DNA of 64,000 nt. It comes from Candidatus Poribacteria bacterium. Lineage in GTDB: Bacteria; Poribacteria; WGA-4E; PCPOR2b. Location of the stretch: positions 3,328,001-3,392,000 of the forward strand of contig OZ242351.1 in assembly GCA_965208675.1 (NCBI GenBank), in the 5' to 3' direction. Made by a program: the position numbers and the translations under genes. Positions 3,319 through 61,734 of the stretch are shown piece after piece; position 1 is the stretch's first letter; the number at the start of each line of letters is the position of its first letter. Below the pieces are notes generated by a model that saw only the letters and a list, made by a program, of their open reading frames with translations, was not told where the DNA came from and made no database searches.

Positions 3319-4293
3319 GTGATCTCCATCATTATCCCGACTTATAATCGAAAAGATGAACTGGGAGACTTACTCACCTCGCTCAGACAGCAGGAGTGTT
3401 CTAGTTCCATTGAGATTATCGTTGTCGATGATGGCTCGGCGGATGGGACACGCGAACTACTAAAAAACCTAGCCGAAGACTGGAAGGGGAGGTTGCGGTT
3501 TCTTAAGCAAAATCGTGCTGGTCCGGGAGCTGCGCGGAATCTGGGAATTAATCACGCTCACGGCGATATTTTAGTCTTCGTTGATTCAGATTGTATTGCG
3601 CCTCGCGGGTGGCTGAACAATCTGACCTCGGTTTTCGACAACCCGAAAGTTGGGGCGGCCGGCGGCCCTGAGATGGCGCCAGTCGATGATTGTTTGCTTC
3701 GAAAGTGCCAGAGTTACGTGATGACGGCTTTTCTCACTACCGGCGGACTGCGGGGTGGAAAGGGAAAGAAACTTGGAGTTTATTATCCGCGGAGTTTCAA
3801 TATGGCTGTCCGAAAGCGCGCCGTCGAAGCGGTTGGGGGGTTTCCCAATCGGTTCTATGGAGAGGACATTCTCGTCGGTTTCAAAGTGGAACACATGGGT
3901 TACACGCTCAAGTATGTTCCGGACGCAGAAGTTTATCATCGCCGACGAGGGACACTGAGCCAATACTTCAGGCAACTGTACCGAATGGGAAAGGCGAGAA
4001 TCGAAATGGCTTATCTGCATAAGTCCTTGTTGGAACCGGTATACACGGTGCCTGCGCTTGTGCTCCTGCTTTGCATCATACTGGGCTGCGGCGCTATTTT
4101 CTCTGAAACGCTTTTTAAGATTGCTTTTGGGTGCATGATAATGGCCTTGCTGTTTCTGACTACCATCGGTATCCACAGCACAATCCGTCTGAAAACGCTC
4201 AAGGCTTTTGGGATTGTGCCCTTTCTGTTTATCATACAACAGACAGCATATGGGTTTGGAACTATCGTCGCTGCATTAAGGAGACAAGCATGA
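3319..4293 (+). CDS. GT2 family glycosyltransferase
   Basis: 'ISIIIPTYNR', 'VVDDGS', 'GPGAARNLG', 'FVDSD', 'GED', C-terminal TM helices. Confidence 0.9.
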   Translation: MISIIIPTYNRKDELGDLLTSLRQQECSSSIEIIVVDDGSADGTRELLKNLAEDWKGRLRFLKQNRAGPGAARNLGINHAHGDILVFVDSDCIAPRGWLNNLTSVFDNPKVGAAGGPEMAPVDDCLLRKCQSYVMTAFLTTGGLRGGKGKKLGVYYPRSFNMAVRKRAVEAVGGFPNRFYGEDILVGFKVEHMGYTLKYVPDAEVYHRRRGTLSQYFRQLYRMGKARIEMAYLHKSLLEPVYTVPALVLLLCIILGCGAIFSETLFKIAFGCMIMALLFLTTIGIHSTIRLKTLKAFGIVPFLFIIQQTAYGFGTIVAALRRQA

Positions 4294-56525: not shown

Positions 56526-56901
56526 TCGAAAGAACCTCCTTTATTTGCGGGTTAGTACCTGTTGGCGGGGGTAGTTCTGCACGCCTAGCTATGGCTTGGC
56601 AATCCGCAAAATAAGATGCCAGCCTACACCCAGCGGCGAGGATGAAAAAGCAAGACGTTGGCGGCCTGTCCGCTATGTGTAAAATTTAGCACACATTTTA
56701 ACGAGCGTCAAGGATTTCTGCCTAACTTTTAATTCCTTGGGCGGCGGAAAACACTGTCGCCGTCGCTATTCGCCCAGTTGACCAATTTTCAGGGGAGAGT
56801 TTGTTGGAGGGAAATTTGGCTTCGCTTTGGGTTCGTTTCGCAAAATGACGGGAATAAGGCTAGCGGTTTTCGGGGCATTTGCAGATTACAAGTTTATCAG
56901 C

Positions 56902-57267
56902 TTTTGTAGGTTGGGTAGAGCGGGTACACCGAAACATGCCCATTATAACCAATCGATTTGTAGGCTAACTTTGTGCAAGATATGTGGGCCGCAGCGAAGC
57001 CCAACGATCAACCGACCGAATACGGAGGGCGATAGTCTTCGTATTTCATAACCTCCGCCACTCCAAAACACATTCCACCTCCCCAATTACCAAACACCCC
57101 CCTTTTTTATTCGAATCAGCCTAGTGGCGGCATCTGTCAACAGGTTACCCGAACGTTCCAAAAACGATGGGTTTTGGAAAAGACTAAAGGAAAACTATCG
57201 CCCTCCCTCTTCGGTCGGTTGATCCTTCGCTATTCGCTCAGTTGATTGCTCTACCCAACCTACAAAA
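56902..57267. mobile_element. REPIN/MITE-like element, copy A
   Basis: Terminal inverted arms TTTTGTAGGTTGGGTAGAGC and GCTCTACCCAACCTACAAAA; about 270 bp highly similar to copy B; contains two inverted copies of the 32-bp repeat. Confidence 0.8.
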
Positions 57268-57360
57268 ACCCGTCCAAACAGGGTTCTAGATTCTATTCGG
57301 TGGGTAAACCGCATGCATCGTCCTCGCGCATCGGTAGGAATTTCTGGATTGCCCATGTTT

Positions 57361-57912
57361 TTAGGATGGGGTGTGCGCCCAAGTGCGGAGTTGGCGATGA
57401 TCATCCGGCGGGGCGCCGTTTTGAAGCCAATCTAGGGGTTCTTCTTCTGTACGGTCTGGATTCACCCAAACAATGTGTTGGATTTCGCCAACACGTTGAG
57501 TAGCGCGGGCAAAACAGCCCCGGACAGTTTCATCAAGAGAGATAATGGTTTGGTCAGTTACTAGCGCTGCTTCGAGGAGGTGGAAATCCTTCCACATCGC
57601 TTTGACCTCATTTTCACGGGATGTTGAAGTTTCGATTTTATTGCACAACGCTTGGTTCAAAGCCGATCCGACATAATGAAATCTCTTTCTAGCAACCATC
57701 GATTTCAGCCATGTGCGTGCAAACACCGATCGAATCCTATTCCATTCCGCCGAAAGTTCGGGGGTCATGACAATGTGATGCCGGCATTCGGTCCGAAACG
57801 ATTCAAGAAATTCGGTGCAGTTGATTGATACCGAAGCCGTTGCCTCCTCTCCGCCGGCAGCCCGTCCAACCGAGACATTCACAACAAGCCGCTTGAAATT
57901 CGTTGGCCGCAT
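57361..57912 (-). CDS. PIN-like hypothetical protein coupled to the AAA ATPase
   Basis: 'LVVNVSV' at the N-terminus and 'KDFHLLEAALVTDQTIISLDE' resemble PIN acidic motifs; start lies 1 bp after the ATPase stop. Confidence 0.55.
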   Translation of the reverse strand: MRPTNFKRLVVNVSVGRAAGGEEATASVSINCTEFLESFRTECRHHIVMTPELSAEWNRIRSVFARTWLKSMVARKRFHYVGSALNQALCNKIETSTSRENEVKAMWKDFHLLEAALVTDQTIISLDETVRGCFARATQRVGEIQHIVWVNPDRTEEEPLDWLQNGAPPDDHRQLRTWAHTPS

Positions 57913-57913
57913 A

Positions 57914-59218
57914 TCATGCTCTTTCAGCCAAACGCAATTGGGCTGCGTTTAGATAACGGCTCTGTGCCTTCAGATCGACATCGTCAAAGTCCTCGGGCCA
58001 GTCCCCGTAAGCCCCCGCCTCGTCGAGATCTGCACAGTTGATTTCGGTGGCGCCGTTTTCGCGCCGTGTGAACCAATGTAGTTTCACCAAATTCGGAGAA
58101 AGGTCTCCTTCGGCAACGAACGTTTGAACCGCCAAAAGCAGCAGCGAACTGTGCGTTTCCGCAACGACGCGAACGCCGCGTTTCGCCGCATCTGCCAGTA
58201 TTTGCGCCAACTTGACTTGTGCACGCGGGTGGAGGTGCATCTCCGGCTGTTCCAGATAGACCAACTGCCCCGGTTCCGCAACAATCAGCGCTACTAATAT
58301 AGGCAACACTTGGGACACACCGCATCCCACATCGGCGATGCTGACCATGTCCGTTTGAGCGGTGCCGCGGTGAGGAAGGCGACCGACTTGCAGTTCGATG
58401 CGGGCGTCCCCGATTTTTTTTGTACCCACCCTGCCGGTAAGCCCAAGCGTGTGAAGAGCATTGGCTAACGTATCCAAGTGTTCATCTGTTGTCTCCTGCC
58501 AACTGTGAATAATACTCGCTACGTAATTCTCAAATGTGCCGAGATATCGTGGACCGGTGCTGGTTAGTTTGTAGAGGCGTTCTGGATTGCCACGTAGTCC
58601 GGGGAGGTGAATACAGTTGACAATGTTAAACGCGAGGTCATGGGTAAAGTCTACCACCTTATGACGATCTTGAGATTCCAAATGCAAAAAACATCGAGAG
58701 CGCCCTACGACATCAAGATCTTCACGCAAATCTTTGGGCATCGAATCTTCTTCAGCCAGCATTTTGATTTTTTCAACCGACATCTCAGGATACAGGGTAA
58801 TGGACTTGAAGGACACCTCCAACGGTTGGTCAGTCTCTAATTTTCTTTCTCTAATCATTTCGGAAAGTTCAATTCCACTTGCCCCTTTTCTGAAAGTCGT
58901 TCTCACCGAAATAGACTCATCACTCTCAATCCGAAGCCGAAAATACTCCGCCCCTTTTTCACCGATTAACTTTGACAAGAATTGCGCCGCCGACGTAAAC
59001 TGCGCATTTGGGCCATCAATCAACAACGGTCCCGGATCATACGGCGCTTCCAGTGTCTGCTTCAGCATCAATAGCGGTTGCATGATGCTCGATTTGCCGG
59101 AGCTATTCGCACCGGCAAGAAGCGTCAGCGGACGGATGTCAATTGCGCACTCGTTCGCGAGTGACTTGAAGCCGCTCACAGTTATCTTGGTAATGCCTTC
59201 GATCGTTTCCTTCGACAT
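57914..59218 (-). CDS. ABC-type AAA ATPase (AAA_15/AAA_21 with DUF3696-like C-terminus)
   Basis: 'GFKS', Walker A 'GANSSGKSS', 'DVGCGVSQVLP', 'EQPEMHLHP..Q', 'ETHS', 'G....WPEDF.D'. Confidence 0.88.
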   Translation of the reverse strand: MSKETIEGITKITVSGFKSLANECAIDIRPLTLLAGANSSGKSSIMQPLLMLKQTLEAPYDPGPLLIDGPNAQFTSAAQFLSKLIGEKGAEYFRLRIESDESISVRTTFRKGASGIELSEMIRERKLETDQPLEVSFKSITLYPEMSVEKIKMLAEEDSMPKDLREDLDVVGRSRCFLHLESQDRHKVVDFTHDLAFNIVNCIHLPGLRGNPERLYKLTSTGPRYLGTFENYVASIIHSWQETTDEHLDTLANALHTLGLTGRVGTKKIGDARIELQVGRLPHRGTAQTDMVSIADVGCGVSQVLPILVALIVAEPGQLVYLEQPEMHLHPRAQVKLAQILADAAKRGVRVVAETHSSLLLLAVQTFVAEGDLSPNLVKLHWFTRRENGATEINCADLDEAGAYGDWPEDFDDVDLKAQSRYLNAAQLRLAERA

Positions 59219-59287: not shown

Positions 59288-60559
59288 TTACGGTTGCGGA
59301 GAATTTGATACTGGACTGATTTGTTCTGACAGGTTTGCAGCGAGGACGTTTTCGAACGATACGTTCATGTTTGTCTCCAACTCTTTCGCAGCCGTTCGGT
59401 CTAATCTGAGGTTTTTAAGTGATTCTAGCAGTAACCACGTCTCGCCATGGTTATTATCCGTGTCGGCATAATTGGGATTCAGTTTTATGGCTTTATTATA
59501 GTCTTTAACGGCGCGGTCAACCTCACCTTTGACATCGTAGGCGATACTGCGATTGTAATAGGCATCTGCATAATCTGAATTAAGCCGTATCGCTTTGTCA
59601 AAGTCAGCGATGGCACGGTCAACCTCGCCTTTGCGGCCGTAAACCAGGCCACGGCAGCAATATGCGTCGGCGTGATTCGGCTTTAACTGTATGGCTTTAT
59701 TATAGTCTGTGATGGCGAGTTCATACTCGCCTTTATCATCTTGAATGACGCCCCGATTATGATATGCGTCGGCGTCATTTGGGTTCAAATGTATAACCTT
59801 ATTGTAGTCTTCGATGGCAAGTTCATACTCGCCTCTGTGTCGATGAGTCAAGCCTCGATTGTAATGGGCATCGGCATAATTGGGATCCAGTTGTATGGCT
59901 TTGTTGAAGTCTTTGATGGCAAGGTTATATTCGCTCATTTTATCGTAAACATTGCCCCGGTTGTTATACGCTTTAGCGTCATTCGGTTCCATTTGAATTG
60001 CTCGGTTATAGTCTACAATGCTGTGGTTGTACTCGCCTATGTCAAGGTACGCAGCCCCGCGGTTGAAATAGGCCTCCGGGAATTCCGCATTAAGTTCGAT
60101 TGCTCTGTTAAAGTCGCAAATAGCCCGGTCGTAATCTCCATTGTCCATGTAGAAAACGCCCCGGCTGTAATAGGGGTAGGCGTTATTTGGATTTAATTCT
60201 ATGGCTTTGTTAAAGTCGGTGATGAAATTATCATAATCGCCTTTTTGATGGTAAACCAAACCACGAAAGTAATAGACGTCCGAACATGGGTTCAGTTCCA
60301 TTACAGCGTTAGTTTCCTCAAGGGCTAGATCGTATTCTTCAAGTAAGTAATACATTAAACCGCTCAATGAACGTACTTTGTAAATAAGGTCTTTGTTCTC
60401 ACCCTGCGCTTTGGCGATGCTTTGAAGTGCTAACAAAAATGCGACGGAGTCACCGTCTTTTTGGTATTCCTCTATAGAAACTTCGAGATAGACGATTGCC
60501 TCCTCGCGGTCGGCAAGCCTTTCGACTAGGTAATCGCGGTAGTTTCTCATTCGCCTCAT
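59288..60559 (-). CDS. Fusion of an addiction-module antidote N-terminal domain with about 9 TPR repeats
   Basis: 'YRDYLVERLADREEAIVYLEVSIEEYQKDGDSVAFLLALQSIAKAQG' followed by 34-aa 'AY.NRG..Y...G.Y..AI.D.N.AI.L.P' repeats; ATGA overlap with the toxin gene. Confidence 0.85.
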   Translation of the reverse strand: MRRMRNYRDYLVERLADREEAIVYLEVSIEEYQKDGDSVAFLLALQSIAKAQGENKDLIYKVRSLSGLMYYLLEEYDLALEETNAVMELNPCSDVYYFRGLVYHQKGDYDNFITDFNKAIELNPNNAYPYYSRGVFYMDNGDYDRAICDFNRAIELNAEFPEAYFNRGAAYLDIGEYNHSIVDYNRAIQMEPNDAKAYNNRGNVYDKMSEYNLAIKDFNKAIQLDPNYADAHYNRGLTHRHRGEYELAIEDYNKVIHLNPNDADAYHNRGVIQDDKGEYELAITDYNKAIQLKPNHADAYCCRGLVYGRKGEVDRAIADFDKAIRLNSDYADAYYNRSIAYDVKGEVDRAVKDYNKAIKLNPNYADTDNNHGETWLLLESLKNLRLDRTAAKELETNMNVSFENVLAANLSEQISPVSNSPQP

Positions 60560-60894
60560 TTCGACTGCTCCTTGTATTCCCGCCAATAGGCTTTTGCCCG
60601 TTTTATGTCTCGAACTTGTGAAGATTTGTCGCCTCCGTAAAGTAGCAGCACAAGGGTATTTCCAATTTGTCCGAAATAGACGCGGTAGCCAGGACCAAAT
60701 CGGTAACAGAGTTCAAATACACCACCACCAACTGATTCGCAGTTACTAAAATTGCCAGATTCGATGCGGTCTATTCCGGCTTGAATTCGAGTTCGCGTTT
60801 TTAAATCGGGAATTGATTCAAACCATTGGGTATAGGGCTCTTGACCATTAGGTGTACGGTAGATTTCTAGTTCTCTTGGCTGTACAACGGGCAT
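60556..60894 (-). CDS. RelE/ParE-superfamily addiction module killer toxin (HI1419-like)
   Basis: 'P...W...L.D...R.RI', 'GNF....SVGGGVFEL...FGPGYRVYF', 'LL.GGDKSSQ.RDI..AK.YW'. Confidence 0.92.
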   Translation of the reverse strand: MPVVQPRELEIYRTPNGQEPYTQWFESIPDLKTRTRIQAGIDRIESGNFSNCESVGGGVFELCYRFGPGYRVYFGQIGNTLVLLLYGGDKSSQVRDIKRAKAYWREYKEQSK

Positions 60895-61221
60895 TTACGA
60901 TATCAAAGCTACGTGTAAAGACTAAACAGAACATCGGCACGAGACACTCAATTTGGAGAATTTTCAATAGGGATATGAATTAGTCCGCCTGTAATTGCGA
61001 TTTGTACATTATACCACACGAAAATCGGGCGTGCAAATGGTCGAAAACGCGCTGATTAGCAGTTTCCACGAATTCTGCGCACTAATTCGTTCTGTTTCCT
61101 CTGTTGAATAGGGTGCTTGATTGGAAATCACGGTTTGGGTTCGATTTGGCTTCGTTTCGCAATAATTGGTGATTAGGCTAACGGTTTCCGATGCTTCTGC
61201 AACGCCGCAAATTTATTTGGC

Positions 61222-61591
61222 TTTTGTAGGTTGGGTAGAGCGGGTACACCAAAACATACCCATTATAACCAATCGATCTGTAGGTTAACCTTGTGCAAGA
61301 TCCGCTGGACGCAGCGAAACCCAACGATCAACCGACCGAATAGGGAGGGCGATAGTCTTCGTATTTCATAACCTCCGCCATTCCAAACACAATCCTCCAC
61401 CCCAATTACCAAACAACCCCCTTTTTTTATTCGGATCGGCCTGGTAGTGGCATCTGTCAACCGGTCACCCGAACGCTCCAAAAGCGTTGGGTTTCGCTAC
61501 ACCATAACCATTCGCCAAACAACTTCTATATAAGAATCGCGTACAAATTACTGCGTCTGTTCATCATACCCGCTCTACCCAACCTACAAAA
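61222..61591. mobile_element. REPIN/MITE-like element, copy B
   Basis: Arms TTTTGTAGGTTGGGTAGAGCGGGTA and TACCCGCTCTACCCAACCTACAAAA; inner arms GCGAAACCCAACG and CGTTGGGTTTCGC; direct repeat of copy A, 4320 bp away. Confidence 0.82.
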
Positions 61592-61734
61592 ACTTTCATA
61601 TTTCGGTTGTGAAGGGGTTCGATTTCGGTTCTGAGAGGTGTGGGCAGTGACCCCAATTGAAAATCACGTTCGCGATTTGATAACCCGCTTCAGGCAGGAT
61701 TGCAAGGTAGGTTTTATGGACTCGCAAAACCGTC

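Follow-up and report, generated by a model that had tools for sequence, protein, structure and literature searches.

A 64,000-nucleotide (nt) stretch of a Candidatus Poribacteria genome (assembly GCA_965208675.1, contig OZ242351.1, positions 3,328,001 to 3,392,000, forward strand; hereafter the window) encodes a toxin-antitoxin (TA) pair of HI1419/HI1420 type whose antitoxin appears to keep the toxin-binding head of its family and to carry an array of tetratricopeptide repeats (TPRs) in place of the helix-turn-helix (HTH). The usual description of a type II antitoxin has two parts, one that neutralises the toxin and one that binds DNA and autoregulates the operon. In this pair, protein-binding repeats stand in for the second part, an arrangement conserved under purifying selection across a bacterial family. 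The pair is probably working, or was until recently, with a head that blocks the toxin, a TPR body in place of the HTH, and direct autorepression lost. The HI1419/HI1420 family, the toxin, TPR arrays, and the modularity of antitoxins were already known; the TPR-for-HTH combination appears to be new. A literature search that covered few subscription journals turned up no account of a TPR-bearing type II antitoxin, or of the HI1419/HI1420 family in Poribacteria.

The toxin gene comes first, and the antidote gene lies directly downstream on the same strand (Table 1). Residues 17-107 of the toxin align to positions 5-95 of the 95-position TIGR02683 profile (upstrm_HI1419), with a score beyond the NCBIfam cut-off of 62.85 bits; Pfam adds a trace of Gp49 (E 0.081). 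The toxin is the sole TIGR02683 match in a scan of the 4.89-Mb single-contig host genome. An alignment of 16 toxin orthologues is free of stops and contains 34 invariant columns, including a GGDKSSQ.RDI block. The antitoxin ATG (60559-60557) overlaps the toxin TGA (60558-60556) as ATGA, and AAGGAG (60573-60568) lies 8 nt 5' of that ATG, a geometry that suggests translational coupling. From the ATG, the antitoxin gene (59288-60559, minus strand) encodes 423 amino acids (aa). The upstream TTG chosen by an open reading frame (ORF) finder adds 9 residues, for 432 aa, and this longer frame had been adopted in the preliminary description of the locus, which otherwise placed the elements correctly.

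Homology of the antitoxin head to HI1420-type antidotes emerges from its relatives. In Pfam, the whole antitoxin yields eight TPR stretches and no other family. When residues 1-91 are compared alone with PF21716 (dnstrm_HI1420), residues 13-55 match positions 9-47 of 90, the half of the model N-terminal to the HTH, at E 0.014 and 15.7 bits, under the cut-off of 27. Because this direct match is weak, relatives and profiles were used instead. A word-indexed search with residues 1-66 returned one protein of similar length and 71 shorter ones, with head identities of 68-87%; most carry TPR families, and the few named by source are labelled 'Candidatus Poribacteria'. When ten head sequences were made into a profile (A1) and run against 1.84 billion cluster representatives, 762 matches appeared at E<=1e-3 and 131 at E<=1e-10, most of them 60-200 aa long. 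Pfam assignments for 145 sequences (the query and the 144 top matches) include PF21716 in 55 (E<=1e-3; best E 2e-18), HTH_3 in 12 and TPR_2 in 12. Ten matches of canonical length were examined individually, and seven of them score above the PF21716 cut-off across positions 9-89, P0131 (63.1 bits) and P0134 (65.2 bits) among them. Two HTH-type relatives, L023:3556-3996 and L022:4001-4453, are 61-66% identical to the window head and align with almost the whole of PF21716, L023 over positions 10-88 of 90 (24.9 bits, plus HTH_3) and L022 over positions 9-86 of 90. By these profile links, the first ~53 residues of the antitoxin, of which QKDGDSVAFLLALQSIAKAQG occupies residues 33-53, are homologous to the N-terminal half of HI1420-type antidotes. 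A scan of the host genome for PF21716 found nothing above the cut-off. The same genome holds an orphan antitoxin paralogue (L002:1282-1674; G000:C1 about 1704250-1704646) of 130 aa, directly after a DUF4007 gene and with no toxin gene; its head is 44% identical, its continuation is of HTH type by alignment, and Pfam and NCBIfam scans gave it no match.

The switch from antidote to repeats is sharp. In alignment A7, TPR and HTH forms run together up to the 'AQG' at residue 53 and then diverge, the HTH forms into a GG..LA..T.L.R..LYKALS pattern and the TPR forms into their first TPR. Pfam detects no HTH or other DNA-binding family in the antitoxin, which is TPR from residue 56 on (TPR_1, 268 bits over 8 stretches). 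An AlphaFold2 (AF2) model of the full-length antitoxin, built on a 25-row alignment, reaches a predicted local distance difference test score (pLDDT) of 86.7. Its three N-terminal helices (7-14, 18-35, 38-51) run into a continuous TPR solenoid in which 18 helices form nine hairpins over residues 56-360 (pLDDT 90-99), followed by a capping helix. The preliminary description had read the gene as about 50 aa of HI1420-type antidote passing into about nine TPRs beside an HI1419-like RelE toxin, and the A1 profile, the breakpoint at residue 53, the modelled hairpins and the TIGR02683 match agree with it.

The best PDB matches of the model in Foldseek are designed consensus TPR proteins (39% identity), followed by the TPR domain of O-GlcNAc transferase (OGT); template modelling (TM) scores of the top matches are 0.77-0.85 on the target. 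Because its nearest structures are consensus TPRs and the OGT superhelix, the array looks like a regular, consensus-like superhelix, and as such it carries no information on a specific ligand. The underlying DNA has a 102-nt period with copies 61-75% alike, and repeat number among orthologues ranges from 8 to about 16. The C-terminal tail, modelled with low confidence, aligns in 7 full-length orthologues (alignment columns 575-637) and is partly conserved; tblastn finds tail matches in L006, L015 and L018.

Structure prediction supports binding of the toxin by the antidote head. When the toxin (16-row alignment) was modelled with antitoxin residues 1-100, the interface score ipSAE was 0.85 (runs 0.84, 0.85, 0.85), against 0.00 for the best of three controls, with contact agreement of at least 87% and partner pLDDT of at least 83. 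Of 80 solved complexes, 58 attain this ipSAE mark, and of 110 mismatched pairs, 2 do so; this benchmark is only rough for the custom alignments used here. Confident antitoxin contacts all fall within residues 2-44 (2-8, 10-11, 19-20, 23-24, 27-28, 31, 35, 37, 39-41, 43-44), so that the antidote helices, proposed earlier as the toxin-neutralising part, are those predicted to touch the toxin. PDB sequence searches with profiles of the toxin, the head and the 183-aa protein encoded nearby gave chance-level rows only, and neither the toxin nor the antitoxin chain has a sequence relative there.

The fusion recurs well beyond the window. A scan of related loci, restricted to one genome per species, returned 25 loci from metagenome-assembled genomes (MAGs) with Poribacteria or Latescibacterota labels. 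Among the 32 antidote-head ORFs at these loci, 30 begin with ATGA; a full-length toxin match abuts the start in 16 and a toxin fragment in 3 more. The C-termini of these ORFs divide into HTH-type forms of about 106-108 aa and 147-166 aa, TPR forms of 70-617 aa, and a 168-aa form (L019-L021) that has a single TPR and a different helical tail. TPR-type loci from other assemblies, which include many single-contig chromosomes, have the in-frame junction of the window. In the phylum set, 149 of 176 genomes contain matches to the head profile, and a single genome can have as many as 18; such growth of one TA family is unusual. About 17 matches are strong and of TPR type (about 118 bits or more); they lie in 15 genomes of one family (f1) and one genome of a second (f2). 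A scan of metagenome contigs found 2 distant loci only. The fusion as a unique event was considered and rejected, since the junction recurs in about 15 Poribacteria genomes.

Contigs from public runs bear on the junction, a point raised in the preliminary description. In X1 and X2, the probable source runs, one short-read contig stops at 60442 and the next starts at 60416; a contig from another study bridges the interval (record 19 of run X5, 1478 nt, 78 differences, labelled sponge metagenome), spanning 59882-61000. The unbridged X1 and X2 Logan contigs are what a wrong joining of two genes near 60400 would predict, but they overlap by 27 nt with 0 differences, and their break coincides with a 40-nt stretch common to another contig (a graph branch). 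Because the same junction recurs in other genomes and in the contig from the other study, assembly artefact or chance is excluded as the origin of the fusion, and a misjoin at this particular place has next to no probability.

Selection appears to maintain the repeats. Between the window and its same-genus orthologue L006, the ratio of nonsynonymous to synonymous substitution rates (dN/dS) is 0.11 for the toxin, 0.25 for the head, 0.30 for the TPR array, 0.50 for the tail, 0.22 for the downstream ATPase and 0.29 for the 183-aa protein; by this measure, the TPR array is under purifying selection. Long antitoxins and intact toxins also tend to be kept together. All seven TPR-type loci with an intact toxin (the window, L006, L008, L009, L010b, L012 and L015) carry a long antitoxin (at least 389 aa, or fused) with 8 or more repeats. 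Of the ten that lack an intact toxin, seven have an antitoxin truncated to at most 201 aa (L007, L010a, L011, L013, L014, L017 and L083). Fisher's test over these 17 loci gives p 0.0098, a value that overstates the association because the loci are kin; the count leaves aside L030 (a 40-aa fragment of HTH-type lineage), the HTH-type loci L022-L029, and L019-L021. Deletion in L011, L014 and L017 has left only the last ~13 codons of the toxin gene, which precede the antitoxin start, and the three seem to share the same deletion joint. The remnant in these loci (about 3860-4000) stands directly after a long gene ending in ..NYDIKYRMG, a C-terminus that presumably resembles those of restriction-modification methyltransferases.

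A promoter-like site upstream of the toxin has 10 of 12 consensus matches plus the extended TG, within a stretch conserved in both the window and L006. No single promoter or operator is common to the TPR-type loci, the upstream regions of the window and L006 differing from those of L008, L012, L015 and L010b, and no inverted repeat of at least 8 nt was found in the 190 nt upstream (60880-61070). The missing operator-like repeat and the non-shared upstream regions are weak negative evidence about regulation. Loss of direct autoregulation, suggested in the preliminary description, fits because the antitoxin has no DNA-binding domain and no inverted repeat lies upstream; both of these observations hold, and the loss itself would be their likely consequence.

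Table 1. Features of the TA-TPR locus and its surroundings, in window coordinates.
Feature	Coordinates	Strand	Basis or remark
Downstream dispersed-repeat copy	56815..57270	.	Same element as the upstream copy
183-aa protein, possibly PIN-like	57361..57912	-	Directly downstream of ATPase
NsnB-like ABC ATPase (AAA_15/AAA_21 + weak DUF3696)	57914..59218	-	ATG 69 nt past antitoxin stop
Low-confidence C-terminal tail, antitoxin residues 369-423	59291..59455	-	pLDDT below 50; partly conserved
Nine TPR hairpins, one superhelix, antitoxin residues 56-360	59480..60394	-	Pfam TPR_1, AF2, Foldseek
HI1420-type antidote N-module, antitoxin residues 1-53 (helices 7-14, 18-35, 38-51)	60401..60559	-	PF21716 weak + profile links; predicted toxin-binding part
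Coupling signals: ATGA overlap 60556-60559 + AAGGAG 60568-60573	60556..60573	-	Inside toxin 3' end
Toxin gene, RelE/ParE superfamily, HI1419 type	60556..60894	-	112 aa; TIGR02683 108.3 bits
Promoter-like site TTTGCA, 18 nt, TG-TATAAT	61008..61037	-	Consensus match only; about 114 nt 5' of toxin ATG
Upstream dispersed-repeat copy, 25-nt terminal inverted repeats	61134..61594	.	85% identical to 56815-57270

The ATPase encoded after the antitoxin matches the PADLOC NsnB model at 179.9 bits over 22-427, AAA_15 at 79.1 bits and AAA_21 at about 79 bits; its DUF3696 match (E 0.0079) falls below the cut-off. Matches to it at E<=1e-20 occur in 141 of 176 phylum genomes. The 183-aa protein belongs to no Pfam, NCBIfam or PADLOC family and is modelled poorly by AF2 (pLDDT 42.7); it has a PIN-like motif pattern and an Atlas match to a PIN cluster (score 0.91) that serves as a lead only. 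In 60 fetched ATPase loci (L061-L120), the 183-aa gene follows the ATPase directly in 57. An antidote head lies upstream in 11, all from family f1, with a full-length toxin in 5; at L061 (the L015 copy), TPR and tail matches lie about 3.4 kb upstream of the ATPase, and the head is just beyond the fetched stretch. Because the TA-TPR pair is missing at 48 of the 60 loci, the ATPase and the 183-aa protein are taken as a conserved two-gene module and the TA-TPR pair as an accessory insertion at a variable upstream spot. Upstream genes at 12 of these 48 loci that were examined are housekeeping or unrelated. A need of the ATPase pair for the TA pair was rejected on the same 48 loci.

Several further observations concern the cassette and the module. 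The two-gene module often stands after genes for the Der GTPase, a 2-hydroxyacid dehydrogenase and a permease. In the window, the four-gene cassette is bracketed by direct repeat copies, 85% identical over about 360 nt and 4320 nt apart. Each copy carries terminal inverted repeats of 25 nt, separated by about 320 nt; pieces of the element match 82 places in the genome, and it resembles a miniature inverted-repeat transposable element (MITE).

The head also turns up on other bodies. It is fused to HsdS (Methylase_S) and DUF4268 (L025:4696-6162, with HsdS, and proteins P0106, P0171, P0178 and P0121), and one head lies within an ORF behind a metallo-beta-lactamase/beta-CASP nuclease. By sequence comparison, the antidote head is a portable module, found with HTHs, TPR arrays, HsdS and DUF4268. 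At L009:4001-6586 (862 aa) and L016:4001-6781 (927 aa), head, TPR array and ATPase form one open frame; the two share junction residues and may descend from a single event. Tandem arrays of two or three HI1419/HI1420-type pairs occur in L025-L027, from MAGs labelled Latescibacterota. A second kind of antitoxin-TPR fusion occurs at L123:2526-4784, where a Gp49 toxin (PF05973, 83.5 bits) is followed directly by an HTH_37-type antitoxin N-terminus, its frame open from 2892 with a GTG at 2895, that keeps its HTH and continues into 13 TPRs. The adjoining ATPase/183-aa pair, the portability of the head and the many decayed copies had all been overlooked in the preliminary description.

Taken as a whole, the locus would work as follows. 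Toxin and antitoxin would be translated from one message, in which the two genes overlap at the stop of the first and the start of the second. The N-module would wrap around the toxin, as modelled, and keep it inactive, as expected from the family. The TPR body, which would not bind DNA, would take over the non-neutralising roles of the HTH by providing a stable folded body and protein contacts. Direct autorepression is probably gone, and the pair would be read from the sigma-70-like promoter. The TPR variant would have arisen within one Poribacteria family and been inherited at an insertion hotspot upstream of the ATPase/183-aa pair, and it would be decaying in many genomes through toxin deletion and truncation of the array.

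A number of points tell against this account. The window antitoxin falls below the PF21716 cut-off (15.7 vs 27 bits), an NCBIfam scan of it gives no antidote match, and its membership of the HI1420 family is reached through profile transitivity. The X1/X2 break at 60416-60442 falls just within the N-module, whose residue 53 ends at 60401, and no single contig of these runs spans it. Complexes of RelE-fold toxins with antitoxins have been solved, so the complex model may pass by likeness; binding is a prediction, and toxicity and neutralisation are presumed. The dN/dS values come from one pair. Three long TPR proteins stand without an intact toxin, namely L018 (577 aa), L016 (fused) and L123 (429 aa, beside a toxin without its N-terminus), and these long copies hint at a toxin-independent role for the TPR protein. 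Counting the L019-L021 subtype as 'short' raises the co-retention p to 0.07. Finally, the place of the TPR body as a mere scaffold substituting for the HTH is deduced rather than observed.

Other explanations of the repeats do not exclude the core account of a head that blocks the toxin. In the preliminary description, the array was a sensor, and the antitoxin might accordingly bind a phage or host protein or peptide in the TPR groove, whereupon the N-module would change and the toxin would be freed for abortive infection without proteolysis; the groove is perhaps occupied in cis by the conserved C-terminal tail. TPR arrays do bind proteins and peptides, purifying selection acts on the array, which stays long at every locus with an intact toxin, and a repeat number of 8 to about 16 is what a fast-changing recognition part would be expected to have. 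The independent antitoxin-TPR fusion at L123, the defence-type genes in the neighbourhood and a weak TPR-S match in Pfam (E 0.011, below the cut-off) point the same way. The ligand, trigger and conformational change are nonetheless all hypothetical, and the array is close to designed consensus TPRs (39% identity), with no sign of a specialised pocket. Its dN/dS of 0.30 (one pair) argues against overall diversifying selection. Many TPR genes are a known feature of sponge symbionts, and with so many in the phylum genomes such fusions may be frequent for mutational reasons. A sensing antitoxin is unlikely. A by-product origin of the repeats is also rather unlikely; on that reading, the antidote head became attached to a TPR gene through a deletion and goes on neutralising the toxin, the array serves no particular purpose, and the locus is being lost. 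Decay is common: 10 of 17 TPR-type loci have no intact toxin, 7 antitoxins are cut to 201 aa or less, and most of the 71 shorter head proteins are 65-201 aa, some with tails that look out of frame. The joining of the head to domains as unrelated as HsdS, DUF4268 and a beta-CASP gene product also suits an accidental fusion. The TPR dN/dS of 0.30, however, is like that of the neighbouring genes and far from 1; all 7 intact-toxin loci keep 8 or more repeats; and the tail is partly conserved in 7 full-length orthologues.

A broader possibility is that all four genes form one system, with the TPR antitoxin docking on the NsnB-like ATPase and the toxin serving as the effector arm of a Menshen-like ATPase/PIN-like module that lacks NsnA. 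The genes lie on one strand, the ATPase ATG comes 69 nt after the antitoxin stop, the ATPase is just downstream in 12 TPR-type loci (the window, L006-L009, L010b, L011-L014, L016 and L018), and L009 and L016 read N-module, TPR array and ATPase in one frame. The 183-aa neighbour contributes its PIN-like motif pattern and the Atlas lead, and in Menshen, NsnC nucleases include Gp49 types and NsnB binds the PIN-like part (PMC12065111). Yet the ATPase pair occurs without the TA-TPR pair in 48 of 60 loci across the phylum, and the TPR-type pair at L123 has no ATPase match within 11 kb. The L009 and L016 fusions may be one event, and at L078 the ATPase is extended at its N-terminus by an unrelated sequence. 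The antitoxin and ATPase genes are separated by a terminator-like hairpin, and no NsnA accompanies them, the 4 DUF262 genes of the genome being >1.3 Mb away. Because all linked loci belong to family f1, plain vertical inheritance at a hotspot could account for the linkage; because of this and the 48 unlinked loci, a four-gene system is held to be improbable. Hardly more probable is a synthesis of these ideas, in which the head acts as a portable 'toxin leash' on varied partner-binding bodies, with the TPR body and tail sensing a trigger or docking on the ATPase and the toxin released as a Menshen-like effector. Were that so, a type II TA pair would have been rewired from transcriptional autoregulation to protein-level signalling.

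The significance of the locus depends on what the repeats do. If they bind a partner, the pair would be a naturally occurring TA system governed by recognition of a protein rather than by promoter feedback and proteolysis; if they only scaffold, it would be a modest addition to the catalogue of antitoxin architectures. In either case, a movable HI1420-type head bears on how defence islands assemble new systems.

Compared with HI1419/HI1420 pairs, the window locus shares a toxin above the TIGR02683 cut-off, the toxin-first order, an antidote that overlaps the toxin stop, and a ~53-residue antidote head that matches family model positions 9-47 of 90. It differs in that the Cro/C1-type HTH half is missing and a nine-TPR superhelix with a tail stands instead; HI1419/HI1420 antidotes are about 100 aa, whereas the window antitoxin is 423 aa and under the Pfam cut-off. 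Vibrio cholerae HigBA2 also encodes its RelE-superfamily toxin first, and the N-terminal segment of VcHigA2, disordered until bound, neutralises the toxin while the C-terminal HTH dimerises and binds DNA (PMC5416850). The two systems have in common the toxin-first order and an N-terminal neutralising segment with a separate C-terminal domain. Unlike in VcHigA2, the three-helix N-module of the window is modelled as continuous with the TPR solenoid, no DNA-binding domain follows, and kinship between the two has no support from PDB sequence searches.

Menshen offers a close parallel to the neighbouring genes. In this system, NsnA (ParB-DUF262) is encoded upstream of NsnB, an ABC ATPase (AAA_15) with DUF3696; NsnC joins an inactive PIN domain to a BECR nuclease effector, often of the RelE superfamily and including Gp49 types; and NsnB binds the PIN-like part of NsnC (PMC12065111). 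Set against that outline, the neighbouring ATPase is a full-length NsnB match with the AAA_15 and DUF3696 layout, a small, possibly PIN-like protein follows it, and the cassette contains a Gp49/RelE-superfamily nuclease, here as a free-standing toxin. No NsnA lies near the cassette, the four DUF262 (PF03235) genes of the genome all being outside the window. Unlike NsnC, the 183-aa neighbour has no space for an effector domain, and its PIN likeness is a lead only. From its sequence matches, the ATPase/183-aa pair looks like a Menshen-like module without a sensor.

CapRel-type sensor antitoxin domains combine an antitoxin with a sensing part. Neither they nor the Panacea/DUF4065 network are known to include a TPR array, and the term 'TPR' has 0 occurrences in the paper on the network (PMC10440598). 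The network and CapRel resemble the window antitoxin all the same, since both join portable neutralising elements to varied accessory or sensing domains.

No sign of kinship in sequence or fold connects the antitoxin to Rap/RNPP regulators; Rap, NprR and PlcR chains are absent from the Foldseek matches listed (ranks 1-50), and a peptide gene was not looked for. In Rap proteins, an N-terminal helical bundle holds a partner, and a peptide in the TPR groove releases it. Rap/RNPP regulators and the window antitoxin nevertheless share a short N-terminal helical module that runs into a TPR array, and these regulators provide the nearest working model for how a sensing antitoxin of this kind might operate.

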